DNA from: a virus
Taxonomy: Duplodnaviria; Caudoviricetes
Direction: 5' to 3' (one strand)
Length of the DNA: 57,663 nt
Virus record (IMG/VR): IMGVR_UViG_3300030331_004162
Location: 1-57,663 of that record
Shown here: piece after piece, positions 1-32,157 of the stretch
Layout: the number at the start of each line of letters is the position of its first letter
Numbering within the stretch: position 1 is the first letter of the stretch
Program-made: the position numbers and the translations under genes
Notes under the pieces: generated by a model
Seen by the model: the letters and a program-made list of their open reading frames with translations, nothing else
Database searches by the model: none
What the model was told of the DNA's origin: nothing

Positions 1-222
1 GGCGAAAAGTTCAACGCGAAGCCGCGCATCCGATTGTCCACGATTCACGGCACAAAGGGCGGCGAAGCAGAGAACGTGGTGATCCTGCCTGACCTGACTG
101 CCGCGGCCATGGAGGAAGGCGGCGATGATCTACACCGCGTTTTCTATGTGGGGGTCACCCGCACATTGAAAAACCTCTACATCCTTGAACCGGACGACTA
201 TCTAAGGGCCTATGCGTTATGA
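1..222 (+). CDS. UvrD/Rep-family SF1 helicase, C-terminal fragment (gene starts at 56881)
   Basis: Frame 1 is open from base 1 (GEKFNAKPRIRLSTIHGTKGGEAENV...FYVGVTR), giving SF1 motifs V and VI. Confidence 0.9.
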   Translation, partial: GEKFNAKPRIRLSTIHGTKGGEAENVVILPDLTAAAMEEGGDDLHRVFYVGVTRTLKNLYILEPDDYLRAYAL

Positions 223-2296: not shown

Positions 2297-2304
2297 CGTA
2301 TAGC

Positions 2305-2733
2305 ATGGAATTGTACTGCTACCGCGCCCAAGTGCTACGCGTCATTGACGGGGACAGCCTGTCTCTGAACGTCCGGTTGGGATTTGACGTGTCCCTCAAA
2401 ATGAGCGTCCGCCTGTACGGCATCGATACTGCGGAAACGCGCAGGGTAAGCGGGGGCACTGAGGACCTCAAAGCATTAGGCCGCTTTGCCAAACAATTTG
2501 TGAGCAATCTGTTGCCCGTTGGCACAGAGGTGACCATCCGGACCACATTAGATTCCAAAGGTAAATTTGGCAGGGTGTTGGCCACCGTCATGATTGACGG
2601 CGACGAAGACTCGTTAAACGACTTCATGGTAGCGCAACGACTAGCTATCCCGTACTACGGACAGAACAAGAAACTCACCCTCGAGCAACACAAAATGTGT
2701 GTAGCTCACCATAGAAAACTTGGTAATATCTAG
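2305..2733 (+). CDS. thermonuclease (SNase-like) family nuclease
   Basis: RVIDGDS, VRLYGIDTAETR and KGKFGRVLA motifs. Confidence 0.88.
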   Translation: MELYCYRAQVLRVIDGDSLSLNVRLGFDVSLKMSVRLYGIDTAETRRVSGGTEDLKALGRFAKQFVSNLLPVGTEVTIRTTLDSKGKFGRVLATVMIDGDEDSLNDFMVAQRLAIPYYGQNKKLTLEQHKMCVAHHRKLGNI

Positions 2734-2742
2734 GAGAATCAA

Positions 2743-2973
2743 ATGGATACAACCAAATGGAAATCCACTTTGTTACCTCGAGACGTGTACGAGGAAGTGG
2801 TGGTCATTGCCCGCGTCGAAGGCCGCACGATTAGCGGACAACTGCGCTACATCATTGAGCAATGGAAGATGCAGAATCTGTCCAATCGTGATCAGGAGTA
2901 CATCTCTGAGCAGGTGGACACATTCAAGAAAGAGAACGACACCCCTTTGAGTTCCAAGAGCTTTAGCATATGA
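2743..2973 (+). CDS. small DNA-binding protein, ribbon-helix-helix-like (candidate regulator)
   Basis: WKSTLLPRDVYEEVVVIARVEGRTISGQLRYII fits a strand-helix-helix pattern; GGAG SD. Confidence 0.6.
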   Translation: MDTTKWKSTLLPRDVYEEVVVIARVEGRTISGQLRYIIEQWKMQNLSNRDQEYISEQVDTFKKENDTPLSSKSFSI

Positions 2974-3149
2974 CCATTCAGCAAGAGTTCGATAAAGCTT
3001 TGAAAAAGTTTGAAGAGGACTTTGCAAACGGTACGGTGTCCAAGGATCAGTTCGACAAGCTGGAAGTCTGGCAACAATTGCTCCAAGCTAAAGGTGAAGC
3101 GGAGCGGGAACATAATGCAAAAGATATTAATAACCCAAGAAGAAATTGA
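2970..3149 (+). CDS. hypothetical protein (59 aa)
   Basis: Own translation MTIQQEFDKALKKFEEDF...; ATGA coupling to the upstream gene. Confidence 0.6.
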   Translation: MTIQQEFDKALKKFEEDFANGTVSKDQFDKLEVWQQLLQAKGEAEREHNAKDINNPRRN

Positions 3150-3288
3150 AGACGTGCTTATTTCAATACAAGCCGGACAGCAAACCGCTAACCGTCTTAA
3201 ACAGCCCATAGCTATTCAAAAAGATCTGTCCATTACGCCTTTGTCAGAGGCGACCATGGAGGTTCTTGAAATCATCCGACCTGAGTGA
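3115..3288 (+). CDS. hypothetical protein (57 aa)
   Basis: Internal ATG of ORF 3010-3288, preceded by GGAGCGGGA. Confidence 0.55.
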   Translation: MQKILITQEEIEDVLISIQAGQQTANRLKQPIAIQKDLSITPLSEATMEVLEIIRPE

Positions 3289-3294
3289 TAGGTT
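3266..3294 (+). promoter_or_regulatory. sigma70 extended -10 promoter driving the candidate sRNA
   Basis: TTGAAA (3266-3271), N17, TG-a-TAGGTT (3289-3294). Confidence 0.6.
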
Positions 3295-3300
3295 GGCATT

Positions 3301-3425
3301 CCGCGATAACCTCTCATGGGGGGTAATCGTCGGACTCCTAAGAGATATTAGGGATTAACCATAGTTTTCTCCAAAGTGACTGCAAAATGATGATCCCGAC
3401 CCGGCCCCAGAGCCGGGTTTTTTTT
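3301..3425 (+). ncRNA. candidate trans-acting antisense sRNA (anti-Shine-Dalgarno/leader)
   Basis: Promoter upstream; hairpins at 3301-3333 and 3336-3353; unpaired CCATAGTTTTCTCCAAAGTGACTGCAAAAT complementary to cassette leaders; ends in an intrinsic terminator. Confidence 0.62.
3399..3425 (+). terminator. intrinsic terminator
   Basis: ACCCGGC-loop-GCCGGGT followed by a T run. Confidence 0.88.
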
Positions 3426-3452
3426 GCGCGGCTTCTGCATATATGTTAGTTT
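3424..3452 (+). promoter_or_regulatory. putative sigma70 promoter
   Basis: TTGCGC-N17-TG-t-TAGTTT, followed by a TATGAGA box. Confidence 0.45.
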
Positions 3453-3487
3453 ATGAGAACCATCGTACACCGATACAGGAGAGCGTG

Positions 3488-3706
3488 ATGGCTAAAAAGC
3501 GAGCAAGAACCAAGACTGGTCAGTTTGTGGCAGATGACCCGAACACGCCAGAGAACGAGGCGTGGGTTACAGTGGGCGGCGTCGAAGCGTCAGGGACCAC
3601 GGACAACGAAGCAAAGCCCGAGAAATTCAAGCCGATGACATGGAAAGAGTACGCCATCCTTGGTGGTATCCTTTTGATTATGAGCTTGGTAGGCATAACT
3701 GGGTGA
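3488..3706 (+). CDS. small membrane-anchored phage protein
   Basis: RARTKTGQFVADDPNTPENEAW motif recurrent in marine phage proteins; C-terminal hydrophobic helix; AGGAG SD. Confidence 0.7.
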   Translation: MAKKRARTKTGQFVADDPNTPENEAWVTVGGVEASGTTDNEAKPEKFKPMTWKEYAILGGILLIMSLVGITG

Positions 3707-4041
3707 GAGAAACCACAATCATTATAGACATTTCAGCTTTACACCCTGACCATTACCCTCGGATAAAGAAGATGCTGAAAAACTTGAAGCTAAAACGAGT
3801 AAAACTTTATGTCGTTGACTTGATCGACGGTATGTCTATTGCGCTAAACATTTTATTTGGCGGAAACCCTGCGGAAACAATATCCAGCCGCGCTTTCCGG
3901 ACCACTGAAAGTTGTTTTTGGAGAATCCTCCGCAGAATACTCGACACGCTACTTACGCCACGGGCAGACAATCATTGCTGTAAGTCTTACAATCGTTGCC
4001 TCGAAAGGTCCAAAGCCTTATTAGGCAACAGGTTTAGATGA
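3703..4041 (+). CDS. conserved phage hypothetical protein
   Basis: LNILFGGNPAETISSRA motif; GTGA overlap start (start uncertain). Confidence 0.6.
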   Translation: MRETTIIIDISALHPDHYPRIKKMLKNLKLKRVKLYVVDLIDGMSIALNILFGGNPAETISSRAFRTTESCFWRILRRILDTLLTPRADNHCCKSYNRCLERSKALLGNRFR

Positions 4042-4316
4042 GCGATAAAAAGTTAGTGACCACTAACCAGCGTCGAGAGATTGCCCAGTTGTTGGAAGAC
4101 GATCAGGCTTTCCTCGACTTTGTCATAAACGAAACCACAAATGACTCATGGCTGGGGGATGAAACCTGTAAGAGCATGATGAAAATCCTGTCCGCCGAAA
4201 GCGAGCAGGAGTTCTTTTCGGGGCTGTGCCACATGGGCTTTGAAATCTACACCGACTATCTCCTCGAGAAGCATCAGGACTATTTGAACTCGGCCCACGG
4301 GTCCATGCTCCATTGA
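4038..4316 (+). CDS. hypothetical protein
   Basis: 92-aa ORF with ATGA coupling. Confidence 0.65.
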   Translation: MSDKKLVTTNQRREIAQLLEDDQAFLDFVINETTNDSWLGDETCKSMMKILSAESEQEFFSGLCHMGFEIYTDYLLEKHQDYLNSAHGSMLH

Positions 4317-4576
4317 TGCAACCCTGCCCGGAAGACTACGTCCGGTGCTACACCCCCGAAGAATGGGACGACCTCCAGTTCCTGCTCGAAGAAAACGACA
4401 TAGCCTATGACGTAGGCCCCATGGGGGACGTAGAGTCCGCCATCCACTTCACGTGGGAGCTTCTGTTCCTGTCCCCATGGGAACTAGCCTACATCTCCAT
4501 ACCCATGACCGTCATAGCCTTTTACGTGCTGACTATCTACAGCGCCTTCAAATACATCCAACGCAAGTTTCGATAG
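4313..4576 (+). CDS. hypothetical membrane protein
   Basis: Acidic N-terminus and C-terminal TM segment; coupled to the upstream gene. Confidence 0.65.
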   Translation: MMQPCPEDYVRCYTPEEWDDLQFLLEENDIAYDVGPMGDVESAIHFTWELLFLSPWELAYISIPMTVIAFYVLTIYSAFKYIQRKFR

Positions 4577-4612
4577 AAAACCAAAACGCAACCCTTTCCG
4601 TTTTTCTATCAT

Positions 4613-4928: not shown

Positions 4929-5126
4929 ATGAAATTAACTTATCGAAAAGCCCTCAATAGAGGCTGGGAACCCGTGCTATACCACACGGACAACGGACAA
5001 CGGGCCGCCGCGATTATGAAGCGGGGCCGTAAATGGATGGAGATCATGTGGGCAGACGGTTCCAAGAAACGTGTGCAACTTGCCGAAGAACGATACATGC
5101 GCCCCATGACCAGTAAGCGGGGGTGA
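4929..5126 (+). CDS. hypothetical basic protein
   Basis: AGGAG SD; downstream of a promoter. Confidence 0.7.
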   Translation: MKLTYRKALNRGWEPVLYHTDNGQRAAAIMKRGRKWMEIMWADGSKKRVQLAEERYMRPMTSKRG

Positions 5127-8117: not shown

Positions 8118-8457
8118 TTGGTCAGCCACACGCTTAGAATCCAGAGCCACCTTGGGTGTGCCGGATGTCTTGATCATGGACAATCAGGGTGATTGGCACA
8201 TGATTGAACTGAAGACCACAGCCAACATGAGCGTTGATATGTCCCCTCACCAAGTTGCCTTCTTGACTAAACACGCGAGGGGCAGTGTTTGGATAGCCGT
8301 CAAACTGACCAGCGCCACAGGCCATGAGGTATTTCTTTATCGCGGTGAGCGGGCAGTGGACGTAAAGCTAGAGGGATTACGAGCTACACCGGATAAACAC
8401 TTCAGTTTCCCTGTTTCCTACAGGGAGGTCCTCACAAGTATTGCAAGTATGCGCTGA
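8023..8457 (+). CDS. PD-(D/E)xK nuclease, Holliday junction resolvase/VRR-NUC-like
   Basis: EASFW...GVPDVL...IELK...SPHQVAF. Confidence 0.8.
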   Translation: MDILDGKPKTKKQREASFWQSLKKAMRDNFPDWSATRLESRATLGVPDVLIMDNQGDWHMIELKTTANMSVDMSPHQVAFLTKHARGSVWIAVKLTSATGHEVFLYRGERAVDVKLEGLRATPDKHFSFPVSYREVLTSIASMR

Positions 8458-8506
8458 CCCGCATATAGTGGCGGTGGGCAATGTTGCCCGTTACTTGGAG
8501 AAAACA
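8441..8506 (+). promoter_or_regulatory. cassette 1 promoter, operator-like palindrome, 5' hairpin and SD
   Basis: TTGCAA-N17-TATAGT; TATGCG-N6-CGCATA palindrome; GGGCAA-TG-TTGCCC hairpin; TTGGAGAAAAC. Confidence 0.7.
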
Positions 8507-9682: not shown

Positions 9683-9735
9683 TATGCGATAGTGGCTATG
9701 CGGCAATCCTGCCGCGTTTGCTTTGGAGAGCAATT
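9683..9735 (+). promoter_or_regulatory. cassette 2 leader
   Basis: TATGCGATAGT, hairpin GCGGCA-atcc-TGCCGC, CTTTGGAG SD. Confidence 0.7.
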
Positions 9736-10869
9736 ATGCAAAATTCAATTGAAAACTCAGACCAGACCCTGACCCGTTTGCTTCAACAGGTACAGGATCA
9801 AGCCGCCAGATCGCAGGACTTTCTGGCCCCGACGAATCAGCTTCAGCTTGTGACCGGTGATGCGGGTGACGGTAGCAAAGTCAGTCAGATCATCATGGAG
9901 CAGACAGGGGGTGCACCTACCCAAATTCTGTCCGCTAATGATGTGGCGTTTGATCAGATCAGCCAGCGGGCCGGTATTGATGTCCGGACTGCCCGCCGCC
10001 TTCAGCAGGATTATTCCGCTGAATTTGATGGCCTGATCAATGCTATCTGGCAGAAGGAACCGGCGGTGCGAATGATTCGTTCATTCCAGCACACTGATAA
10101 CGCGGGCACGGCTCGAGCGTTTGTCAGCGATAAGTTTAAGACATTCGACAATGTGCACCTGTTGAATTCGGCCCTGCCCGAGCTAATGGAAAGTGACGCC
10201 CAGTGGCAAGTGGTAAACGGCACGGTGACTGATAAGCGCCTGTACCTCCGCCTGAAGTCTGCGGTCATTACGGGTGAGGGCGCGGCGGTGGGCGACATCA
10301 TGGCGCTTGGCATTGGCATGAGTAACAGCGAGGTCGGGTGCGGTAGCGTCAACGTGTATCAAATGCACTGGACGCTGGCCTGCTTAAATGGATTGCAGAC
10401 CGAAAAGCGTACCCGCAAGTCTCACATCACTGGCGCTCGAGGCGATGCTGATACGTGGGGCCTACTGACGGACGAAGCAAAGGATGCGGATAATCATGCG
10501 CTGGCGCTTCAAATGCGGGACGTTACCGCGGCGTATGCCAGCCGTGAGTCATTTGACGAAGTGCTGGAAAAGATGAAAACCGCGCACGATGACAAAGTCG
10601 AGGGCTCGCCGCAGTCGGCAGTTGAGGCCATGGGCAAAGTGCTGGCGCTTACTAAAAAGGATACCGCCAGTTTAATGGACGGCCTGCTGGCCACTATCGG
10701 GCAGTCAGGTTATGCCGGTCAGCCGGTTACCCGTGCCACTATGGTAAACGCGGTTACAGCGGTAGCGCATACCGCGGACGCTGACAGTGTGGACGATTGG
10801 CAAAAGCTTGGCGGGCGCGTGTTGGATCTGCCCCGCTCCGATTGGCAACGTGTGGCGATGGCGGCTTAA
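9736..10869 (+). CDS. DUF932-like phage/plasmid protein
   Basis: SDKFKTFDN...RLYLR...NSEVGCGSV...LACLNG...H pattern; start reassigned to the ATG after the SD. Confidence 0.7.
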   Translation: MQNSIENSDQTLTRLLQQVQDQAARSQDFLAPTNQLQLVTGDAGDGSKVSQIIMEQTGGAPTQILSANDVAFDQISQRAGIDVRTARRLQQDYSAEFDGLINAIWQKEPAVRMIRSFQHTDNAGTARAFVSDKFKTFDNVHLLNSALPELMESDAQWQVVNGTVTDKRLYLRLKSAVITGEGAAVGDIMALGIGMSNSEVGCGSVNVYQMHWTLACLNGLQTEKRTRKSHITGARGDADTWGLLTDEAKDADNHALALQMRDVTAAYASRESFDEVLEKMKTAHDDKVEGSPQSAVEAMGKVLALTKKDTASLMDGLLATIGQSGYAGQPVTRATMVNAVTAVAHTADADSVDDWQKLGGRVLDLPRSDWQRVAMAA

Positions 10870-10870
10870 A

Positions 10871-11038
10871 GTGGCCGCTTATCGCGTGGAAGTAGTGCAA
10901 ACCAGTGTTTTTTATTTTGAGGCAGATAATCCTGAGCAGGCGCGTCAGATCGCTACCGAGGATTTTATCTGGGACGAAGATCAGGATGCCCCTAACAGCT
11001 ACGGCGTCCACTTCAACATTTTTGAGATAGAAGACTGA
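10871..11038 (+). CDS. small acidic protein, DpnD/PcfM-like
   Basis: YRVEVVQTSVFYFEADNPEQARQIA pattern; GTG start right after the upstream stop. Confidence 0.55.
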   Translation: MAAYRVEVVQTSVFYFEADNPEQARQIATEDFIWDEDQDAPNSYGVHFNIFEIED

Positions 11039-11056
11039 TTTAACACTCCAAAGTGT

Positions 11057-11082
11057 GCCCCGCTCCGGCGGGGCTTTTTTTT
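11057..11082 (+). terminator. intrinsic terminator (CCCCGC family)
   Basis: GCCCCGC-tccg-GCGGGGC followed by T8. Confidence 0.9.
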
Positions 11083-11090
11083 GTCTGCTG

Positions 11091-11143
11091 TATGCGATAG
11101 TCTAAGCGGGCCGCGATTGGCGGCGACTTTGGAGAATACAAAA
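11091..11143 (+). promoter_or_regulatory. cassette 3 leader
   Basis: TATGCGATAGT, hairpin GCCGC-gattg-GCGGC, ACTTTGGAGAA. Confidence 0.7.
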
Positions 11144-11839
11144 ATGCAACTATTAGATACTCGGGGCGCGAACCCCAAACTGAAAAAAACCGGCAAGGCG
11201 GCCCCGTTCCGCTATGCGGGGTTATCGCTTTATCCGGATAACATACTTTGCGCGGGAGCGAAGGCGGCGGGTTGTATGGATTGGTGCTTAGTAAATGAGG
11301 GCCGCGGGCGGTTCGATAACGTGCGAGAGGCGCGCCAGCGTAAGGCGGCATATTTGCATAATGATCGTGCGGGGTTTCTCGAGCAATTGCACCGTGAGTT
11401 ATCTAACTTCACAAAGCTTTGTGAGCGCACTGGCGAGCGTGGCGCGGTCCGGCTTAATGTTGTCTCGGATGTTAAGTGGGAACGGTACGGGATACCGCAA
11501 GCGCACCCCGAGCTTCTGTTTGTTGACTATTCAAAGCAAGCGGCGAGACTTGGAAAAACCCCCGATAACTACAAGCTCATTTTCAGCTATAGCGGGCGGC
11601 CCCAATACCGAAACCAAAACCGGCGGGCTTTCCAAACGGACGCCCCCGTGGCGGTAGTTTTTCGGGGCGGGTTTCCGCGGATGTTCCGCGGGCGGCCCGT
11701 GATAGACGGGGACCGAGATGACATCGCCAATGCTTTTGCTACTGGTCAGATAGTCGGGCTAACCCCAAAAGGATCGGCCCGCAACGATCGGTCCGGTTTT
11801 GTAGTGGATAACCCCGATTTGATAGGGGCCGCGTCATGA
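11144..11839 (+). CDS. gene product 88 (Gp88)-family protein, Cys-cluster/radical-SAM-like
   Basis: C-x7-C-x3-C, VRLNVVSDVKWE, DYSK, IFSYS, VAVVF, VIDGDRDD, GLTPKG, SGFVV. Confidence 0.8.
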   Translation: MQLLDTRGANPKLKKTGKAAPFRYAGLSLYPDNILCAGAKAAGCMDWCLVNEGRGRFDNVREARQRKAAYLHNDRAGFLEQLHRELSNFTKLCERTGERGAVRLNVVSDVKWERYGIPQAHPELLFVDYSKQAARLGKTPDNYKLIFSYSGRPQYRNQNRRAFQTDAPVAVVFRGGFPRMFRGRPVIDGDRDDIANAFATGQIVGLTPKGSARNDRSGFVVDNPDLIGAAS

Positions 11840-12075: not shown

Positions 12076-12081
12076 AACCAA

Positions 12082-12106
12082 GCCCCGCCTCGGCGGGGTT
12101 TTTTTT
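12082..12106 (+). terminator. intrinsic terminator (CCCCGC family)
   Basis: GCCCCGC-ctcg-GCGGGGT followed by a T run. Confidence 0.9.
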
Positions 12107-12116
12107 ATCCGCCATA

Positions 12117-12169
12117 TATGCGAGAGTATGCGCTGCCGTAATGTTGCGGCGACTTTGGAGAATAGAACC
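12117..12169 (+). promoter_or_regulatory. cassette 4 leader
   Basis: TATGCGAGAGT, hairpin GCCGTAATGTTGCGGC, ACTTTGGAGAATAGAACC. Confidence 0.72.
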
Positions 12170-12307
12170 ATGGCTAAAGCTTGGAGAAAAAAAGGGAAGC
12201 GGGCGCGGCAGGAGCGCGCCCTTGCGCGACTGTTAGCAAAGCCCACGCATACCGGTCGGGACTTGGTGGATATTGCTAACCTGAAAAAGTGTCTCGGGGT
12301 TTCATGA
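12170..12307 (+). CDS. small basic protein (45 aa)
   Basis: Own translation MAKAWRKKGKRARQERALARLL...; strong SD; ATGA-coupled to the next gene. Confidence 0.65.
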   Translation: MAKAWRKKGKRARQERALARLLAKPTHTGRDLVDIANLKKCLGVS

Positions 12308-12543: not shown

Positions 12544-12570
12544 AACCCCGCCTCGAGCGGGGTTTTTTTT
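12544..12570 (+). terminator. intrinsic terminator (CCCCGC family)
   Basis: AACCCCGC-ctcga-GCGGGG followed by T8. Confidence 0.9.
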
Positions 12571-12580
12571 GACCGCGGGG

Positions 12581-12634
12581 TATGCGACACTAGCCGTGCC
12601 GTAATGTTGCGGCGAATCTTTGGAGAATAGAACC
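12581..12634 (+). promoter_or_regulatory. cassette 5 leader
   Basis: TATGCGACACT, hairpin GCCGTAATGTTGCGGC, CTTTGGAGAATAGAACC (near-identical to cassette 4). Confidence 0.72.
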
Positions 12635-13018
12635 ATGTCAATACGTGTTGATTTGAGCCAAGACCAAGAGGTCGAAGTTACTGCGACTTTTGAAGTGTGC
12701 GACGAAGTCCCTGATTATGTTAGGGCGGACAATGCAGAAGATATCTTGGAGTTAATGAACGATAGCAATATCAATATGGCCGAAGTTATCGAGGCCGCCG
12801 TGTTAAATGGGGTTGATATGCCCGAGGCACATTCCGTTACTTTTGACAATGTGATGGCCTTTCTGGACGGCCGCGGTCCCGAGGGTGATCAATACATCAA
12901 AATTATCGGTAGCGCGTTAGTCGGTCTGCGCTTGGATCTCGAGAACACGGAGCGAGCGAATATTCAGTTGCGCGAGACTATCGATAGAATGTCCGCGGCT
13001 GATCAGAAAACCGCCTGA
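12635..13018 (+). CDS. hypothetical acidic protein
   Basis: ATG after the SD; single-gene cassette. Confidence 0.72.
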   Translation: MSIRVDLSQDQEVEVTATFEVCDEVPDYVRADNAEDILELMNDSNINMAEVIEAAVLNGVDMPEAHSVTFDNVMAFLDGRGPEGDQYIKIIGSALVGLRLDLENTERANIQLRETIDRMSAADQKTA

Positions 13019-13037: not shown

Positions 13038-13063
13038 ACCCCGCCTCGAGCGGGGTTTTTTTT
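13038..13063 (+). terminator. intrinsic terminator (CCCCGC family)
   Basis: ACCCCGC-ctcga-GCGGGG followed by T8. Confidence 0.9.
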
Positions 13064-13073
13064 GTCTGGCTTT

Positions 13074-13128
13074 TATCGCATACTGCGCTTGCCGCAATGT
13101 CGCGGTAAACATTTTGGAGACAGACACT
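13074..13128 (+). promoter_or_regulatory. cassette 6 leader
   Basis: TATCGCATACT, hairpin GCCGCAATGTCGCGGT, TTTTGGAGA. Confidence 0.65.
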
Positions 13129-13374
13129 ATGTCGAATAACTTTCAAAACGAGCTAGAGCATGTTGGCGTTGCCAAGACCCGCGTCTGGGAACTGGCCACC
13201 GCCGCCGATCGAATCCACACTGCAGTCTGCGCGCTGGATATCCAGAACCGAAAGGTACTGGCAAAGCATTACCCCGCCTTCCTGCAAGTCGCGGAAGAAT
13301 TCGCGAAATTCGATGACACTCTGCTGGCGGAAATGGGCGTAAAGTTTAAGCGCGCTAAGGGCGGCAAATCATGA
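13129..13374 (+). CDS. hypothetical protein
   Basis: ATG after the SD. Confidence 0.7.
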   Translation: MSNNFQNELEHVGVAKTRVWELATAADRIHTAVCALDIQNRKVLAKHYPAFLQVAEEFAKFDDTLLAEMGVKFKRAKGGKS

Positions 13375-14112: not shown

Positions 14113-14291
14113 ATTTTTTCGGAAAAAACCCGTAAGCCCCGAGCCGAGGTCCCTGAAACGTGTTACGGTTCAAAAAAAACGCGTACAGGAGTCCCAGAGC
14201 TTCAAAAATTTTGCAAAAAATTGAGAGCTACCGGATCGCATATATGTTTATAATTGAAGTGAGTACTTACTAACCCCGAGAGCTAGTGTTT

Positions 14292-15770
14292 ATGCGGAGT
14301 AATGGTTCTAGTTTTGAGTCTTTAGAGGAAGCGGAAGAGAAGATTCTGAAGCTCGAATACCGGCTGGCGCAGATTGAGCAGGTTGAGTCGTGTCAGAGAG
14401 ACTATTTGAGCTTTGTCCGGACGATGTGGCCCGAGTTTATTGCGGGTCGGCACCACAAGATCATGGCCGAGAAGCTTGAGCGAGTGGCCAGTGGGGAGTT
14501 GAAGCGGTTGATCATCAACATGCCGCCGCGTCACACGAAGTCTGAGTTTGCGAGTTTCCTGTTTCCGGCTTGGATGATTGGTAAAAACCCTGCAATGAAG
14601 ATTATTCAGGCTACGCACACCACGGAACTTGCGGTCAACTTTGGCCGGAAGATCAAGAATCTGCTGGAGAGAGATGATTATCTGGAGATTTTCCCTGATG
14701 CGGCGCTTTCTGCTGACTCGAAGGCGTCCGGTAGGTGGGACACGGCCCGTGGTGGTATGTATTACGGCGTAGGTGTGGGGTCAAACTTGGCGGGACGTGG
14801 TGGTGATTTGATCATTATTGACGATCCGCACTCTGAGCAGACGGCGATGTCGCTGAGTGGCTTTGATGATGCATGGGATTGGTACACAGGTGGTCCTCGA
14901 CAGCGTTTGCAACCGGGCGGGGCCATCATTGTGGTGATGACGAGGTGGTCAGAGAAGGATTTGACGGGTCAATTGATCCGGGCACAGGGTCGCGATGAGT
15001 TAGCGGACACTTGGGAAGTCATTGAGTTCCCGATGGAGATGCCTTCTGGGCAACCTTTGTGGCCGGAGTTCTGGTCATTTGAGGAAATGCAGGCGGTAAA
15101 GGGATCAATTCCCTTGCCCAAGTGGAATGCCCAGTACCAGCAGAACCCTACTGGTGATGAAAACGCGATTATCAAGCGCGAGTGGTGGAATGTGTGGGAT
15201 AAACAGCAGATTCCGCAGTTGCAATACGTGATTCAGAGCTATGACACGGCTTTTTCCAAGAATACGCGGGCGGATTACAGTGCGATTACGACTTGGGGCG
15301 TGTTTTATCCTGAAGAAGGCACGGTTGCGGGGCTAATTTTGCTGGATGCAAAGAAAGGGCGCTGGGATTTCCCTGAATTGAAGCAAGTTGCGATGGAATC
15401 CTACAAATTTTGGGAGCCTGAGACGGTAATTATTGAGGCAAAGGCGAGTGGTATGCCTTTGACCCACGAACTACGGAACATGGGCATCCCTGTGGTAAAC
15501 TTTACGCCGAGTCGCGGTAACGATAAGGTATCGCGAGTACACAGTGTTTCTCCGCTTTTTGAAAGCGGGATGATTTGGGCACCGGATGAGTCTTGGGCGC
15601 ACGATGTGATAGAAGAGTGTGCGGCGTTCCCTAATGGGGAGTATGATGACTTGGTAGACAGCACCACGCAGGCGTTGATGCGATACCGACAGGGTAACTT
15701 TGTTCAGTTGCCATCAGATTATTGGGAAGATGAGAGTGCGAATCTTCGGCCAATGCAATATTACGGGTAG
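14292..15770 (+). CDS. terL: terminase large subunit
   Basis: MPPRHTKS Walker A variant, IIIDDPH Walker B, SYDTA and DDLVDSTTQAL nuclease motifs. Confidence 0.95.
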   Translation: MRSNGSSFESLEEAEEKILKLEYRLAQIEQVESCQRDYLSFVRTMWPEFIAGRHHKIMAEKLERVASGELKRLIINMPPRHTKSEFASFLFPAWMIGKNPAMKIIQATHTTELAVNFGRKIKNLLERDDYLEIFPDAALSADSKASGRWDTARGGMYYGVGVGSNLAGRGGDLIIIDDPHSEQTAMSLSGFDDAWDWYTGGPRQRLQPGGAIIVVMTRWSEKDLTGQLIRAQGRDELADTWEVIEFPMEMPSGQPLWPEFWSFEEMQAVKGSIPLPKWNAQYQQNPTGDENAIIKREWWNVWDKQQIPQLQYVIQSYDTAFSKNTRADYSAITTWGVFYPEEGTVAGLILLDAKKGRWDFPELKQVAMESYKFWEPETVIIEAKASGMPLTHELRNMGIPVVNFTPSRGNDKVSRVHSVSPLFESGMIWAPDESWAHDVIEECAAFPNGEYDDLVDSTTQALMRYRQGNFVQLPSDYWEDESANLRPMQYYG

Positions 15771-17285: not shown

Positions 17286-17798
17286 ATGTCAGATGGAATA
17301 ATGGGGTTAATTAATGAAGCGCGGGCTTACGCAGAATCAAAGTACGCGGCACATTTAGGAATGGACGACGACGCTATTGCTTGGGCCAATTCTGTTGGAG
17401 AAAAATACGGAAAAGCCGGTCAGTTTGATGGAACAGCCGATGCCGCAAGACATATAGCTTTAGGGTGGCTAACTACGCAGACACCGGACCCAGAGCGCGC
17501 TTTTAAATCAATTCAAAACCGTGAAGATTTTGGACTAGATCGTATTTCTGAATTTTTTAATCCCGAACATCGTGGTCGTCGGATGGATTTGCATAACAAC
17601 CGGTTAGGTTACGAGCTTCCGGCTAAGACAAGAGACGAAGCTGAAAAACTCATTAATCAGCTTATTCTTTCTAAAGAAGCTGAATATATGACCCCCGAAG
17701 AAAGCCGCAAAATGAGAGGCTATGCTATGGGCGGTGAAGCGCGATATGATATAAGACGCGGCGTGGGCGCATTTGCCCCATACACTAGGAGTGCCTGA
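17286..17798 (+). CDS. hypothetical protein
   Basis: 170 aa; DAARH...MDLHNNRLG motif; C-terminal YAMGG. Confidence 0.7.
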   Translation: MSDGIMGLINEARAYAESKYAAHLGMDDDAIAWANSVGEKYGKAGQFDGTADAARHIALGWLTTQTPDPERAFKSIQNREDFGLDRISEFFNPEHRGRRMDLHNNRLGYELPAKTRDEAEKLINQLILSKEAEYMTPEESRKMRGYAMGGEARYDIRRGVGAFAPYTRSA

Positions 17799-20233
17799 TG
17801 GCCAATGGTGACGATAAAGCACAGCTATCTTCGTTGATGGATAGCACGGCCCCTCGTTCTGAATTAGAAGATGCCGATCTTGAGTTGGACATTGAGATAG
17901 CCGCACCCGGTACTTTTGTAGGTAAAGTCAACGAGGTTTTGCCGGAAGGCATAGAGATTGAGGCCGAAGAAGATGGTGGAGTTACTGTCGATTTTGATCC
18001 TATGGCCATGGTTGGCCTTGATGACGGCGATTTCTATCGCAACTTGGCAGAGGAGTTGGACGATAGAGAGCTTGGCCGCCTATCTTCAGAGCTTTTAGGC
18101 GAGTTTGAAGCTAACAAATCTTCGCGTTCCGAGTGGGAGGACGCGTATTCCAAGGGCTTGGAGCTTTTGGGGTACAATTACGAAGAGCGCACAATGCCCT
18201 TTAGAGGGGCCACGGGCGTAACTCACCCATTGCTTGCAGAAGCGGCCACACAGTTTCAGGCACAGGCATTTAATGAGCTTTTGCCGCCGTCAGGGCCTGT
18301 TCGCACCCAGATTATTGGTGAAAAGACGCGAGAAAACGAAGCGCAGGCGTTTCGTGTAAAAGAGTTTATGAACTACTACATCACCAACGTGATGGAGGAG
18401 TACACGCCTGAGTTTGATCAGATGCTGTTTTACCTGCCGCTGGCCGGTTCTACTTTCAAGAAAGTTTATTATGACGAGGCGATAGATCGCGCTGTCAGCA
18501 AGTTTGTCCCCGCAGAGGACATTGTGGTGCCGTATGGTGCCAGTGATTTAGATTCTTGTGAAAACATCACTCAGGTCGTGAAGATGACTTTAAATGATCT
18601 GCGTATCCGGCAGGTCATGGGTTTTTACAGGGACATCCCCGTTATTCCGGCGCAAGGCGCAGAAGACGAGATTACGGGTGAGATCAATAAACTAGATGGG
18701 GTAGAACCCAGCAATCTGGATTATGACTGCACTTTGCTTGAGTGCCACGTCAATCTGGACCTAGAAGGTTTTGAAGACACGGGGGAAGATGGCGAGCCAA
18801 CGGGCATCAAAGTTCCGTATATCGTCACGATAAGCGAAGATAGCGGCCAAGTTCTGTCTATTCGACGCAATTTTAAAGAAGAAGACGACGTAAAGAAAAA
18901 GATCCAGTATTTCGTGCACTACAAGTTTTTGCCGGGTTTTGGATTTTACGGCCTTGGTTTAATCCATACCATTGGTGGCCTGTCTCGCACAGCCACTGCG
19001 GCCTTACGTCAGTTGATTGATGCGGGTACGTTGTCGAATCTACCGGCAGGTTTCAAGGCCCGTGGCCTACGGGTCAGGGACGATGAAGAACCGCTACAGC
19101 CCGGTGAGTTTAGGGATGTAGATGCGCCCGGTGGGGCTATCAGGGACTCTTTAATGCCGTTGCCGTTCAAGGGTCCAGACACCACGTTGTTCCAGCTTCT
19201 GGGCTTTGTGGTAGATGCGGGTCGTCGGTTCGCGACGATTACGGACATGAAAGTGGGCGATGGTAACCAGCAGGCGGCTGTCGGAACGACGGTAGCGTTG
19301 TTGGAACAGGGCTCACGGGTCATGAGTGCGGTGCATAAACGTCTGCACTATGGGATGCGTCAGGAGTTCAAGCTTCTCGCGCGGGTAATGTCCGAGTATT
19401 TGCCGCAGGAATACCCTTATGCGGTGATGGGGGGTGATCGTGCGATCATGCAACGGGACTTTGATGACCGGATAGACGTTGTTCCGGTATCAAACCCCAA
19501 CTCTTTCTCGCAGGCACAGCGTATTTCACTGGCGCAAGCCCAGCTACAGATGGCCATGCAGGCCCCTCAAATGCATGATATGCATGAAGCATATCGTCGT
19601 ATGTATGAGGCTTTGGGGGTCAATGACGTAGACAAAATATTGATAGCGCCGTCCTCAGACGATCCAATACCAAAAGATCCCGCACAGGAAAACATGGATG
19701 TTCTTGATGGTGTTCAGTTGAAGGCCTTTGAGGGTCAGGACCATGATGCACACATTATGGCGCATTTAATTTTTTCGACTTCTCCTACATTACAGGCGAT
19801 GCCTACTGCCGCGATAGCTCTTCAAAAGCACATCATTGAACATGTGAAATTGAAATGTCAGGAAATGGCTACGGCACAAATGTTGCAACGAACCGGTGGC
19901 CAACCTTTGAACGCGGACATGGAGCTTGAGTTAGAAGCCATGGTCGCTCAAATCAATGCACAAGAGTTTGCCAAGCTGAAACAGCTTACAGCACAGATCA
20001 CGGGCCAGAACCAAGGTGACCCGCTGGTGCAACTCAAGCAACAGGAGCTTCAGTTGGATGCTCAGAAGCAACAGGCAGAGTTGCAGATGGATCAGGCAGA
20101 GTTGCAGATGGATCAACAACGTATGGCTAACAAGCAGACTGAGTTCCAGCAACGACTTGCTAGTCAGGAACGACAGACGCAGGCTAGAATCGACGCGGCT
20201 TTACAACGTGAATTGTTAAAACGAGGTAATTGA
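17798..20233 (+). CDS. portal protein
   Basis: 811 aa downstream of terL; HPLLAEAATQFQA, LAGSTFKKVYYD, GFYGLGLIH; Gln-rich coiled-coil C-terminus like a P22-type barrel. Confidence 0.9.
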   Translation: MANGDDKAQLSSLMDSTAPRSELEDADLELDIEIAAPGTFVGKVNEVLPEGIEIEAEEDGGVTVDFDPMAMVGLDDGDFYRNLAEELDDRELGRLSSELLGEFEANKSSRSEWEDAYSKGLELLGYNYEERTMPFRGATGVTHPLLAEAATQFQAQAFNELLPPSGPVRTQIIGEKTRENEAQAFRVKEFMNYYITNVMEEYTPEFDQMLFYLPLAGSTFKKVYYDEAIDRAVSKFVPAEDIVVPYGASDLDSCENITQVVKMTLNDLRIRQVMGFYRDIPVIPAQGAEDEITGEINKLDGVEPSNLDYDCTLLECHVNLDLEGFEDTGEDGEPTGIKVPYIVTISEDSGQVLSIRRNFKEEDDVKKKIQYFVHYKFLPGFGFYGLGLIHTIGGLSRTATAALRQLIDAGTLSNLPAGFKARGLRVRDDEEPLQPGEFRDVDAPGGAIRDSLMPLPFKGPDTTLFQLLGFVVDAGRRFATITDMKVGDGNQQAAVGTTVALLEQGSRVMSAVHKRLHYGMRQEFKLLARVMSEYLPQEYPYAVMGGDRAIMQRDFDDRIDVVPVSNPNSFSQAQRISLAQAQLQMAMQAPQMHDMHEAYRRMYEALGVNDVDKILIAPSSDDPIPKDPAQENMDVLDGVQLKAFEGQDHDAHIMAHLIFSTSPTLQAMPTAAIALQKHIIEHVKLKCQEMATAQMLQRTGGQPLNADMELELEAMVAQINAQEFAKLKQLTAQITGQNQGDPLVQLKQQELQLDAQKQQAELQMDQAELQMDQQRMANKQTEFQQRLASQERQTQARIDAALQRELLKRGN

Positions 20234-25293: not shown

Positions 25294-25363
25294 TTTATGT
25301 TAGTATAAATTTTTCCTGACAGCCTCATACTGAGGTTGACACTGGCCACGACAGGAGAACCTC

Positions 25364-25846
25364 ATGGCTAATACTACGTTTAACGGTCCCGTCCGTTCCG
25401 AAAACGGTTTTTCAGATATCACCAAAAACTCCACTACCGGCGCTGTAACCAGCACCATGACGCTTTCTACCTACGAAACTACTATCACGGTAGCTGACGG
25501 TGCCACTACGGGCAAAGAGTCTGCAATTGGTATTCCAGATAATTTTATCCCTATGGGCGTTACAATTGCCGTTACTACCGCCGCCGCAAACTCTGTCACG
25601 CTTAATGATATCGGCACAGATGCTGATACTGACGGTTTTGTTGATGGTATTTCTGCCGCTCTAAATTCAACTGGTTTCAAGGGGTTTTTCCCATGTAACG
25701 GTGTCCTTGGCATGTCCGGTGGAACAACCACTGCGGCTACTGGTACAGCGGACGAGGTTGAGCTTGTTGTTTCGGGAGATCCCGGCGGCGACACAGTTAT
25801 TGTTTTGAAGTTTTTTGGAATTTCCAGCACTTCTGACGCATCATAA
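25364..25846 (+). CDS. putative virion structural protein
   Basis: MANTTFNGPVRSENGF N-terminus; Thr/Gly-rich. Confidence 0.7.
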   Translation: MANTTFNGPVRSENGFSDITKNSTTGAVTSTMTLSTYETTITVADGATTGKESAIGIPDNFIPMGVTIAVTTAAANSVTLNDIGTDADTDGFVDGISAALNSTGFKGFFPCNGVLGMSGGTTTAATGTADEVELVVSGDPGGDTVIVLKFFGISSTSDAS

Positions 25847-32075: not shown

Positions 32076-32157
32076 AAAAGACTAGGAGATAGCCAATAGT
32101 TGAAAGTTCTACTTCTTGGGAGCTGGTGGATTAAATCAAGGCTAATTGGAGAAAACA

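Follow-up and report, generated by a model that had tools for sequence, protein, structure and literature searches.

What is encoded between two small ORFs at positions 3266-3425 (+ strand) of a ~57.7 kb marine phage, in a stretch that carries the antisense of a leader repeated several kilobases downstream? The source phage, whose 57,663-nt record as a whole is referred to here as the window, is a distant relative of HTVC023P-type pelagiphages and of lytic type. A blastn search of 2900-3800 against cultured phages gave no match, a tRNA scan gave no tRNA, and an NCBIfam search of 14 neighbouring proteins assigned no family. From the sequence and its relatives, we consider it likely that the element encodes an antisense RNA that acts in trans and would block translation of the units headed by this leader.

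The element reads as a transcription unit of its own, with a putative promoter and an intrinsic terminator on one strand. An extended -10 promoter, named already in the first-pass annotation, is present as TTGAAA (3266-3271) and TAGGTT (3289-3294), separated by a 17-nt spacer and with TG at 3286-3287. This sigma-70-type site, which matches 8/12 positions plus TG and is absent from the list of a simple promoter scan with a bar of 9/12, overlaps the final codons and stop of the preceding ORF. The pattern TTGnnn-16..18-TAnnnT was found at the equivalent position in 32/32 sequences examined. For one of them (L028) the site was assigned by eye, the regular expression having taken a later, wrong site; another (L030) keeps the promoter (TTGACT-16-TATCAT) despite a different flanking coding sequence. 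The terminator claimed alongside the promoter was recovered by a terminator scan as well, with an 8-bp, G+C-rich stem at 3398-3419 followed by U8/T8 up to 3425. The features of the locus and of its candidate targets are collected in Table 1.

Table 1. Features of the putative antisense RNA gene, its second copy and the leaders carrying complementary sites (rank, duplex energy with the loop among 71 start regions).
Feature	Position	Strand	Description and basis
Upstream ORF	3115-3288		ORF preceding the element; replication operon upstream
Promoter (putative)	3266-3294	+	Sequence read; hexamers and 16-18 nt spacing also in all relatives examined
P1 5' hairpin	3297-3337	+	Folds; sequence variable among relatives, pairing kept
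ACUCCU motif	3334-3339	+	Columns nearly invariant (at least 90%) in alignment A2
P3 long hairpin	3351-3397	+	Folds; outer arms 3351-3357 and 3391-3397; seed in loop
Seed CUCCAAAGUG	3369-3378	+	P3 loop; complementary sites in leaders
Intrinsic terminator	3398-3425	+	Terminator scan; helix 7 conserved with two-sided changes
Cassette-type leader	8441-8506	+	TTGCAA-17-TATAGT promoter-like site, hairpin GGGCAATGTTGCCC, TTGGAGAAAAC, ATG 8507; rank 2/71
Leader of DUF932-like gene (9736-10869)	9683-9735	+	TATGCGA box, hairpin GCGGCAATCCTGCCGC, CTTTGGAGA at 9721-9729; rank 3/71
Second antisense copy	11043-11082	+	ACACUCCAAAGUGU directly before terminator 11057-11074 plus U8
Leader of GP88-family gene (11144-11839)	11091-11143	+	Box, hairpin, ACTTTGGAGAA at 11126-11136; rank 5/71
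Leader of 45-aa ORF (12170-12307)	12117-12169	+	18/22 match to loop reverse complement, 12141-12162; rank 1/71
Leader of 127-aa ORF (12635-13018)	12581-12634	+	CTTTGGAGAA at 12618-12627; rank 7/71
Leader of 81-aa ORF (13129-13374)	13074-13128	+	TATCGCA box, hairpin, TTTGGAGA at 13113-13120; rank 4/71

The fold revises the structure first proposed for this RNA, which had two 5' hairpins followed by an unpaired segment at 3359-3388. The first hairpin, P1, stands; the second (CCUAA/UUAGG) lies outside the minimum-energy fold and overlaps an arm of P3, and the supposedly unpaired segment is the interior of hairpin P3 rather than free single strand. MAFFT alignments A2-A4 were out of structural register, and RNAalifold on A2 returned three terminator pairs only; because these alignments were structurally unfit, P3 was counted from per-sequence folds and then with a covariance model. 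Its arms occur as 16 distinct pairs over six positions, of which 96.9% are paired, a value equalled in 0/1000 column shuffles. In the model alignment, two-sided changes occur at 3/5 pairs of the outer and 5/5 pairs of the inner P3 helix, and P1, in the same kind of model-fitted alignment, shows them at 9/9 pairs with 95.2% of cells pairing. Over the whole element, an alignment of 35 distinct sequences, which was fitted to the model's structure and thereby favours it, has two-sided changes at 21/30 pairs, and 91.8% of its cells pair versus 77.1% in shuffles (0/500 equal); slid partners in the same alignment pair at only 42-48%. The ACUCC(U) motif lies within or beside a small hairpin loop in the relatives, and may be a second C-rich seed without a known target. 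Because the promoter spacing is kept, 21/30 pairs change on both sides and the terminator is conserved, the data support the view that the + strand holds here a gene of its own for a structured RNA.

This RNA family is uncurated and absent from Rfam, and it is kept in dozens of marine viral contigs. A gathering-threshold Rfam scan of the whole window returned Mu-gpT-DE only, and a permissive scan of 3230-3470 gave six weak matches; RF02278 (Betaproteobacteria toxic small RNA) reached 19.1 bits (E 0.099) against a gathering threshold of 50 bits. The element matched no Rfam family in either scan, in line with the first-pass annotation, which did not recognise it as a described family. Covariance model R1 found it in 58/76 sources searched. 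It was also present in 33/80 loci fetched with the polymerase, 31 by motif and 2 by nhmmer. At E <= 0.01 the model missed the window's own copy (L001, 22.5 bits) because its seed alignment is narrow. The seed followed by a T-run occurs in 69 IMG/VR stretches, representing 26 distinct sequences, ~18 of them with P3; six (L151, L164, L192, L193, L202 and L208) lack a P3-like stem and were set aside as clearly unrelated. Two others among the 26, L169 and L195, have a different fold, yet GGGAU/AUCCC arms are present in them. In more distant clades (polymerase 70-77% identical), other small promoter-terminator units stand at the same place; complements of their loops were not enriched in their own genomes, and these clades therefore add nothing to the complementarity test.

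The most constant part of the element is the P3 loop, with the consensus CUCC(C)AAAGUG. Within it, CCAAAGUG at 3371-3378 is invariant across relatives (alignments A2, A3 and A4), the surrounding stems being variable, and the seed of other clades reads CUCCCAAAGUG. A conserved, accessible seed set in a conserved secondary structure, with co-varying P1 and P3, is what a base-pairing sRNA is expected to show. The complement of the loop, (C)ACUUUGG(G)AG, is part of a standard leader composed of a terminator, a TATGCGA box, a hairpin and a ribosome-binding site, which heads 5-6 single-gene units at 8.4-13.1 kb. This leader, to which the loop had been described as antisense, is a real repeat, with occurrences both in the window and in 13 related records. 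Its copies correspond to repeats D1-D3, D6 and D8 and to alignment A1, and inverted repeat I7 is the match at 12141-12162. The genes behind such leaders vary between records (47 genes in 18 families, 4 of them widely shared).

Complementarity of the loop to translation-initiation regions exceeds chance. All the complementary matches listed at the outset proved exact as claimed. They include ACTTTGGAGAA, which occurs also at 12152-12162; TTGGAGAAAAC, whose 11 nt at 8495-8505 are complementary to the seed region and which recurs at 32146-32156; and GGAGAAAGCTATG before the gene at 4929, which complements the loop with one G:U. There are 12 occurrences of TTTGGAGA versus 2.45 expected, a number reached in 0/100 shuffles, and CTTTGGGA occurs 60 times versus 10 for the reversed pattern in ten related records. 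When start regions are ranked by duplex energy with the loop, five cassette leaders take ranks 1, 3, 4, 5 and 7 of 71. The summed leader duplex energy of -131.9 was equalled by 0/300 loop shuffles that kept CUCC (mean, -69.2; minimum, -109.1). Of the start regions listed, only those of cassette type have the UUUGGAG context. Several leaders of other clades read CACUUUGGGAA and have no GGAG; their pairing, of 9-10 nt, covers a weak Shine-Dalgarno sequence.

Loop and leaders also change together between clades, with a block pattern in swap tests, as covariation of seed and leaders should have it. The window clade combines CC in the loop with GG in the leader, and all other clades combine CCC with GGG. 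UUUGGAG stands in 9/9 leaders of the window and its relative G001, where CUCCAAAG is the sequence of both antisense elements. In 12 other records, all listed cassette-type leaders read UUUGGG, and the sRNA reads CCCAAAG in 11/12; the sRNA of the exception, G010 (UUUUCCAAAGUGG), can form only 7-8 contiguous Watson-Crick pairs with the leaders of its own genome. Uninterrupted complementarity reaches 9.8-10 nt at its longest in cognate window-clade pairs versus 6-8 nt in crossed pairs, and mean duplex energies are -24.0 and -20.1 kcal/mol for the cognate classes versus -18.4 and -14.9 kcal/mol for the crossed ones, a difference of ~5. Read from these genomes, this amounts to one clear, apparently compensatory seed-leader change, which is essentially a single evolutionary split, the window clade versus the rest, seen at ~7 sites at once, and concerted evolution of the repeated leaders could have inflated it. 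The sister pair L108/L095 was considered as a second event, with a G-to-A change in the leader accompanying C-to-U in the sRNA; duplex energies did not separate own from swapped pairs, and the candidate is weak.

A second antisense copy lies in the 3' UTR of the ORF ending at 11038. It is present in 11/15 records, with CC in the window clade and at least CCC in the other records that carry it.

These patterns bear on the possibility that the element is a relic or acts purely in cis, being no more than the replication operon's 3' UTR and terminator, derived from an inverted and decayed leader copy, with a complementarity that reflects ancestry and no function in trans. Such an origin would account for a loop whose reverse complement is leader-like well beyond the Shine-Dalgarno sequence, the 18/22 match including part of the leader hairpin, and for the 3' side of the loop in other clades, in which the leaders' AAUGUUG hairpin loop is likewise mirrored; the upstream operon does end at this terminator. 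A relic is expected to decay, however, yet 8-12 loop bases are invariant across clades with compensated changes in the stems, and a promoter with fixed spacing has been retained. The joint change of loop and leaders, and the adherence of a second, independent antisense copy to the same CC/CCC rule, likewise argue against it, and we consider this explanation improbable.

It is also quite improbable, in our estimate, that the RNA mainly targets host mRNAs, or uses its two C-rich motifs to titrate an RNA-binding factor of the host, with a match of loop and leaders that would follow from the relation of both to the Shine-Dalgarno sequence. The complementarity extends past CUCC into AAAGUG, the ACUUUGG context is found only in cassette-type leaders among phage start regions, shuffles that keep CUCC never equal the observed energies, and the loop co-varies with the phage's own leaders. 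What speaks for a host-directed role is the conservation of two anti-Shine-Dalgarno-like motifs, ACUCCU and CUCC(C), together with a best Rfam near-match that is an sRNA family, albeit far below threshold. A long U-tail and a terminator are characteristic of chaperone-dependent sRNAs, which the element may resemble in this respect.

We regard as very unlikely a role at the DNA level, with CACTTTGG(G)AG as the site of a phage DNA-binding regulator in either orientation and the RNA incidental. The motif does occur in both orientations, stands at a fixed place relative to the TATGCGA box in the cassettes and has changed in concert in all copies, as if the specificity of a protein had changed. A DNA site nevertheless leaves unexplained why the antisense motif occupies a hairpin loop whose closing stems co-vary as RNA, and why it directly precedes intrinsic terminators; the cassette motif, moreover, coincides with the ribosome-binding site, 5-10 nt from the ATG, and no candidate regulator was identified. 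A small protein encoded by either strand of the stretch is extremely unlikely: the minus-strand ORF starting at 3362, first given as 16 codons, has 4 (MVNP*) and, though preceded in the window clade by a good Shine-Dalgarno sequence, lacks its start codon in 15/26 relatives, a plus-strand ORF of 19-25 codons ending in the seed exists in 8/26 but is missing from 18/26, window included, and indels and paired compensatory changes suit RNA stems rather than codons. With neither short ORF conserved among the 26 relatives, the view that the element holds no meaningful ORF is upheld.

For the favoured antisense reading, we propose the following course of events. An RNA of ~125-130 nt would start at the sigma-70-type promoter in the end of ORF 3115-3288 and stop at the terminator at 3398-3425; read-through from the upstream replication operon would carry the same sequence as its 3' end. 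Hairpin P3 would display its invariant loop, which would pair with the Shine-Dalgarno sequence and the bases 5' of it in the standard 5' leader, itself composed of its own promoter box, a 5' hairpin and the ribosome-binding site, of 5-6 single-gene transcription units 5-10 kb downstream. As the pairing would cover the ribosome-binding site, translation of all these units would most likely be blocked together, possibly followed by mRNA decay. The second seed copy, before the terminator at 11057-11082, may act likewise as a 3'-end fragment, or alternatively in cis on read-through transcripts. We infer transcription, timing, repression as the sign of the effect, and any host targets. No RNA data set was listed as covering 2300-4600, and three metatranscriptome contig sets from samples in which the phage DNA occurs provided no coverage, results that count neither for nor against transcription. 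The control of all cassettes at once and the automatic enrolment of genes behind the leader, both put forward in the first-pass annotation, would likewise be expectations of the antisense reading, and the cassette genes may be the early or host-takeover genes proposed there. The RNA may activate the leaders instead of repressing them, as the Shine-Dalgarno sequence in the folded leaders has a probability of being unpaired that ranges from 0.13 to 0.67.

The proposed RNA shares its layout with 3'-UTR-type sRNAs such as MicL and DapZ. These have a promoter in the end of the preceding coding sequence, a terminator in common with the upstream operon and a conserved seed before an intrinsic terminator with a long U-tail, and they target several mRNAs at ribosome-binding sites; they are chromosomal, with diverse targets and short seeds. 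The putative promoter in the upstream coding sequence end, the common terminator, the seed before the U-tail and the several predicted ribosome-binding-site targets agree with this type, but the regulon here would be defined by a standardised leader that recurs within the phage's own genome.

Among phage RNAs, the c4 RNA of phages P1 and P7 is described as a structured RNA of ~77 nt whose loops block the translation of a phage mRNA by pairing with complementary sequences around its ribosome-binding site, with variants that define specificity classes (P1/P7 heteroimmunity); in that account it controls one target, ant, in temperate phages and in immunity (PMC12197685). The loop studied here similarly complements the ribosome-binding region of its targets, a mechanistic likeness rather than membership of the family: c4 was not among the matches in the Rfam scans of the window and of 3230-3470. 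Unlike c4, the element belongs to a lytic-type phage, has its own putative promoter inside the preceding ORF, and would address 5-6 separate transcription units 5-10 kb away through one common leader. Characterised phage sRNAs are, according to the same source, mostly from temperate phages or prophages and mostly directed at single genes or host targets (PMC12197685). SviR, encoded by the PLE satellite of Vibrio cholerae, is reported as a trans-acting sRNA that regulates several transcripts of its own genome and of a phage and lowers target translation (10.1101/2022.04.08.487710). It resembles the present candidate as a trans-acting sRNA of a mobile element with several targets in its own genome, but it is satellite-encoded and belongs to a phage-satellite conflict, and the portion of that report drawn on here mentions no common standard leader (10.1101/2022.04.08.487710).

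Functional analogues are found in phage T4, where RegB cuts GGAG in early intergenic regions and RegA occludes ~30 initiation regions (PMC3014915). As far as that source extends, they provide cases of a phage factor that inactivates many early phage mRNAs by acting on the Shine-Dalgarno sequence, the start codon or their immediate surroundings; these are proteins, whereas the effector proposed here would be an RNA acting through ~9-17 nt of base pairing. The cassettes in turn appear to have the layout of the PeSLs of T4-type phages, repeated stem-loop terminators with a promoter between small variable genes, for which modular shuffling has been proposed (PMC2839356, PMC4122927). They, too, have a repeated terminator and a promoter-like box between small genes of variable content, but their leaders have in addition a 5' hairpin that is conserved and a fixed motif before the Shine-Dalgarno sequence. 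The sections of those papers used for this comparison describe no matching antisense RNA with PeSLs as its targets (PMC2839356, PMC4122927).

Since one leader is common to all targets, the genome sequence shows the likely regulon directly, and the natural seed and leader variants constitute a ready-made compensatory-mutation experiment. The loop/leader motif pair could serve the annotation of such regulons in uncultured marine phages. If the antisense reading is true, a lytic phage achieves with one RNA what in T4 falls to the proteins RegA and RegB, and the modular gene shuffling of cassette leaders would be linked to ready-made post-transcriptional control. It is tempting to go further, although we hold this to be unlikely as a whole, and to speculate about a plug-and-play regulon at the post-transcriptional level, made up of the sRNA, its twin in the 3' UTR and the standard leader, in which a gene recombined behind the leader would join a single RNA switch. 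CC/GG and CCC/GGG would then be specificity classes, with RNA-based incompatibility among abundant lytic marine phages in mixed infections, and related phages would silence, or escape the silencing of, each other's leader-driven genes.

We favour, as the best reading of the element, an antisense RNA acting in trans, whose hairpin loop would pair with the ribosome-binding leaders of several single-gene units and thereby block their translation. Sequence comparison supports loop-leader pairing and selection for this pairing; a repressive effect is what we infer from the position of the duplex, which would cover the Shine-Dalgarno sequence.

The window, an entire virus record of 57,663 bases (G+C 49.7%), carries nearly all genes on the + strand, and the DNA runs holding it are labeled as marine, estuary or seawater metagenomes. 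Its nearest cultured relatives are distant, with polymerase identities of 56.5% to phage DSL-LC04 and 50.9% to Pelagibacter phage HTVC023P and terminase identities of 54-63% to this group. Mu-gpT-DE (25314-25366) was the sole Rfam family reaching gathering score in the window scan.

Intergenic region 3289-3487 separates ORF 3115-3288 from the next ORF (ATG 3488). The terminator proposed for the small RNA by the first-pass annotation was recovered by a terminator scan (stem 3398-3419, then T8), and the proposed promoter (TTGAAA, 17 nt, TAGGTT, with TG before TAGGTT) is likewise present, albeit missed by a simple scan because it matches at only 8/12 positions. As RNA, the element has a folding energy of -44.5 kcal/mol (z = -2.8; 1 of 200 shuffles equally stable). 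It matched no Rfam family, the top score being 19.1 bits (RF02278, threshold 50). One DNA run carries C instead of T at 3356, converting U.G at position 6 of hairpin P3 into C-G, as in the related locus L002. Box TATGTTAGT lies 3' of a terminator both past the small RNA (3442-3450, kept in most relatives) and past the capsid gene (25296-25304, immediately upstream of the Mu-gpT-DE RNA), and may represent another promoter class.

The complementary matches listed in the first-pass annotation are each exact as given, and TTTGGAGA occurs 12 times versus 2.45 expected. When 71 start regions were ranked by duplex energy with the loop (3358-3392), the five cassette leaders took ranks 1, 3, 4, 5, and 7. 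Their summed energy of -131.9 was matched by none of 300 CUCC-keeping shuffles (mean -69.2, minimum -109.1); complementarity therefore exceeds the anti-Shine-Dalgarno core. Among the start regions compared, the UUUGGAG context was confined to cassette-type starts and 9165, with AAAGGAG, UAGGAG, CAGGAG and similar contexts at non-cassette genes.

The cassette module is a genuine repeat (11057-11146, 12080-12172, 12544-12637, and 13038-13130), in which a G+C-rich terminator with T8 is followed by a box (TATGCGA or TATCGCA), a small hairpin (e.g., TGCCGTAATGTTGCGGCGA), CTTTGGAGAA, and ATG. The copy at 9683-9735 has no upstream terminator, and the leader at 8441-8506 is a variant form bearing a TTGCAA-17-TATAGT site. 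Every record extending far enough contains the module (box, hairpin, (C)ACUUUGG..., ATG), and ten records contain 60 occurrences of CTTTGGGA versus 10 of the reversed pattern. Since CACUUUGGGAA is found in several leaders of other clades, the conserved motif is CACUUUGG(G)A, not the Shine-Dalgarno sequence as such, mirroring the invariant loop sequence CCAAAGUG. Leaders at 12156-12166 and 12621-12631 read GGAGAATAGAA, which agrees with the strong-site consensus of T4 RegB, GGAGRAYARAA (PMC3014915).

Behind the leaders, ORFs of 45, 127, and 81 amino acids received no family in protein-family annotation. Gene content varies among records, with 47 genes falling into 18 families, 4 of them widely shared, a count in which some singletons are genes clipped at contig ends. 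This variation fits the earlier proposal that a gene is enrolled by the leader it stands behind.

Annotated genes and second seed copy in the window
Feature	Position	Remarks
Family-A DNA polymerase	374-2275	annotated gene
SNase-like nuclease	2305-2733	annotated gene
DUF932-like protein	9736-10869	behind cassette leader; phrog_1362; Atlas feature matches are a lead only
Second seed copy ACACUCCAAAGUGU	11043-11056	3' UTR of ORF ending 11038; immediately 5' of terminator 11057-11074
GP88-family protein	11144-11839	behind cassette leader
Terminase large subunit	14286-15770	annotated gene
Portal protein	17798-20233	annotated gene

For comparison, 80 viral contigs were fetched via the polymerase. 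The element was found about 1 kb downstream of this gene in 31 of them by motif and in 2 further by nhmmer, all carriers having polymerases at least 78% identical to that of the window; 46 loci with 71-77% identical polymerases yielded no element by either method, and the sequence of L023 stops too early to be informative. Every carrier has a TTGnnn-16..18-TAnnnT site at a constant upstream distance, including locus L030 (TTGACT-16-TATCAT), although its flanking coding sequence differs. Per-sequence folds share one plan: P1, a 5' hairpin that varies in sequence, then conserved ACUCC, a long P3 around the seed, and the terminator. Outer arms of P3 include GGGAUUA/UGAUCCC, GGGUUG/CAACCC, GGGUUA/UAACCC, GGAUUC/GAAUCC, GGGC/GCCC, and GGGUUCA/UGAACCC; the 16 distinct arm pairs are 96.9% paired across six positions (slid partners, 27-58%), a level matched by 0 of 1000 column shuffles. 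Amid this stem variation CCAAAGUG is invariant and ACUCCU almost so.

At E <= 0.01, a covariance model of seven sequences matched 58 of the 76 sources; the window's own copy scored 22.5 bits, below this cutoff, because the model's seed alignment is narrow. Across 35 distinct rows of the model alignment, 91.8% of cells were paired versus 77.1% in shuffles (slid partners, 42-48%), no measure of pairing was equaled in 500 shuffles, and two-sided changes occurred in 21/30 pairs, including 9/9 in P1, 3/5 in the outer and 5/5 in the inner helix of P3. Being fitted to the model, this alignment is biased toward its structure; the folds made independently concur. In IMG/VR, a pattern scan recovered 69 stretches in which CTCCCAAAGTGA precedes a T-run. 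Among the 26 distinct sequences that they represent, about 18 have P3-type arms, six are unrelated, and two fold differently.

More distant clades (L038-L041, L044; L049, L062, L070; L045, L047, L068, L080) carry, at the corresponding locus about 1-2 kb past the polymerase, other small units of 75-100 nt that have a promoter, a terminator, and loops rich in C and may be diverged homologues; the loop complements were not enriched within their own genomes. In distant relatives L042, L043, L046, and L077, TATGCGATA lies 13-17 nt past a TTGACC or TTGACA hexamer, suggesting that the cassette box corresponds to the extended -10 portion (TGCGATAnT) of promoters of the host type.

Thirteen records were extended downstream and their leaders catalogued. 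In the window and related record G001 (polymerase 98% identical), 9/9 leaders have UUUGGAG and the loop of the RNA has CUCCAAAG, whereas in 12 other records all listed cassette-type leaders have UUUGGG, and 11 of these records have CCCAAAG in the loop, G010 being the lone exception (UUUUCCAAAGUGG). One clade thus lacks one G-C pair, on the loop and leader sides alike. Swap tests gave a block pattern, in which the longest uninterrupted complement spans 9.8-10.0 nt in cognate pairs of the window clade, 9-14 nt in most of the other own pairs, and 6-8 nt in crossed pairs; duplex energies average -24.0 and -20.1 kcal/mol in the cognate classes and -18.4 and -14.9 kcal/mol in the crossed ones. This co-variation is clear as one evolutionary event, touching about seven sites. 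In the sister pair L108/L095, a leader G-to-A change accompanies a loop C-to-U change, which fits base-by-base pairing; duplex energy did not support it as a second event.

The 3'-UTR seed copy is kept in 11/15 records and differs between clades as the small RNA does (CC for the window clade, at least CCC for the others), with duplex energies of -18.4 and -20.3 kcal/mol for cognate and -16.4 and -15.7 kcal/mol for crossed combinations. It may work as a 3'-end fragment or 3'-UTR-derived small RNA; alternatively, in read-through transcripts it may fold back in cis onto the GP88 leader 80 nt downstream.

Host mRNAs may be targeted in addition to the phage leaders. A protein site at the DNA level, in either orientation, would leave the RNA-level co-variation of the stems and the position 5' of terminators unexplained, and small ORFs, another possible reason for the element, are conserved on neither strand. 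A functionless, decayed inverted leader is incompatible with the invariance of the loop, the retained promoter, and loop-leader co-variation.

The literature searched described neither this RNA nor any lytic-phage sRNA matched to a shared leader, although supplementary tables could hold unlisted RNAs; for HTVC023P it comprised genome and ecology papers, in their available parts. Of the systems described, the c4 RNA of phages P1 and P7 comes nearest, as far as the available text of PMC12197685 goes. With varying genes behind them, the window's leaders resemble the PeSL cassettes of T4-type phages as portrayed in available sections of PMC2839356 and PMC4122927.

In several podovirus genomes, among them HMO-2011, HTVC115P, HTVC134P, HTVC024P, and Lo5R7ANS, GP88 homologues are located inside the first 0.6-2.5 kb, a position which hints that genes of the cassettes are early. 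In that case, the antisense RNA would perform early shut-off, a role carried out in T4 by the proteins RegB and RegA (PMC3014915).
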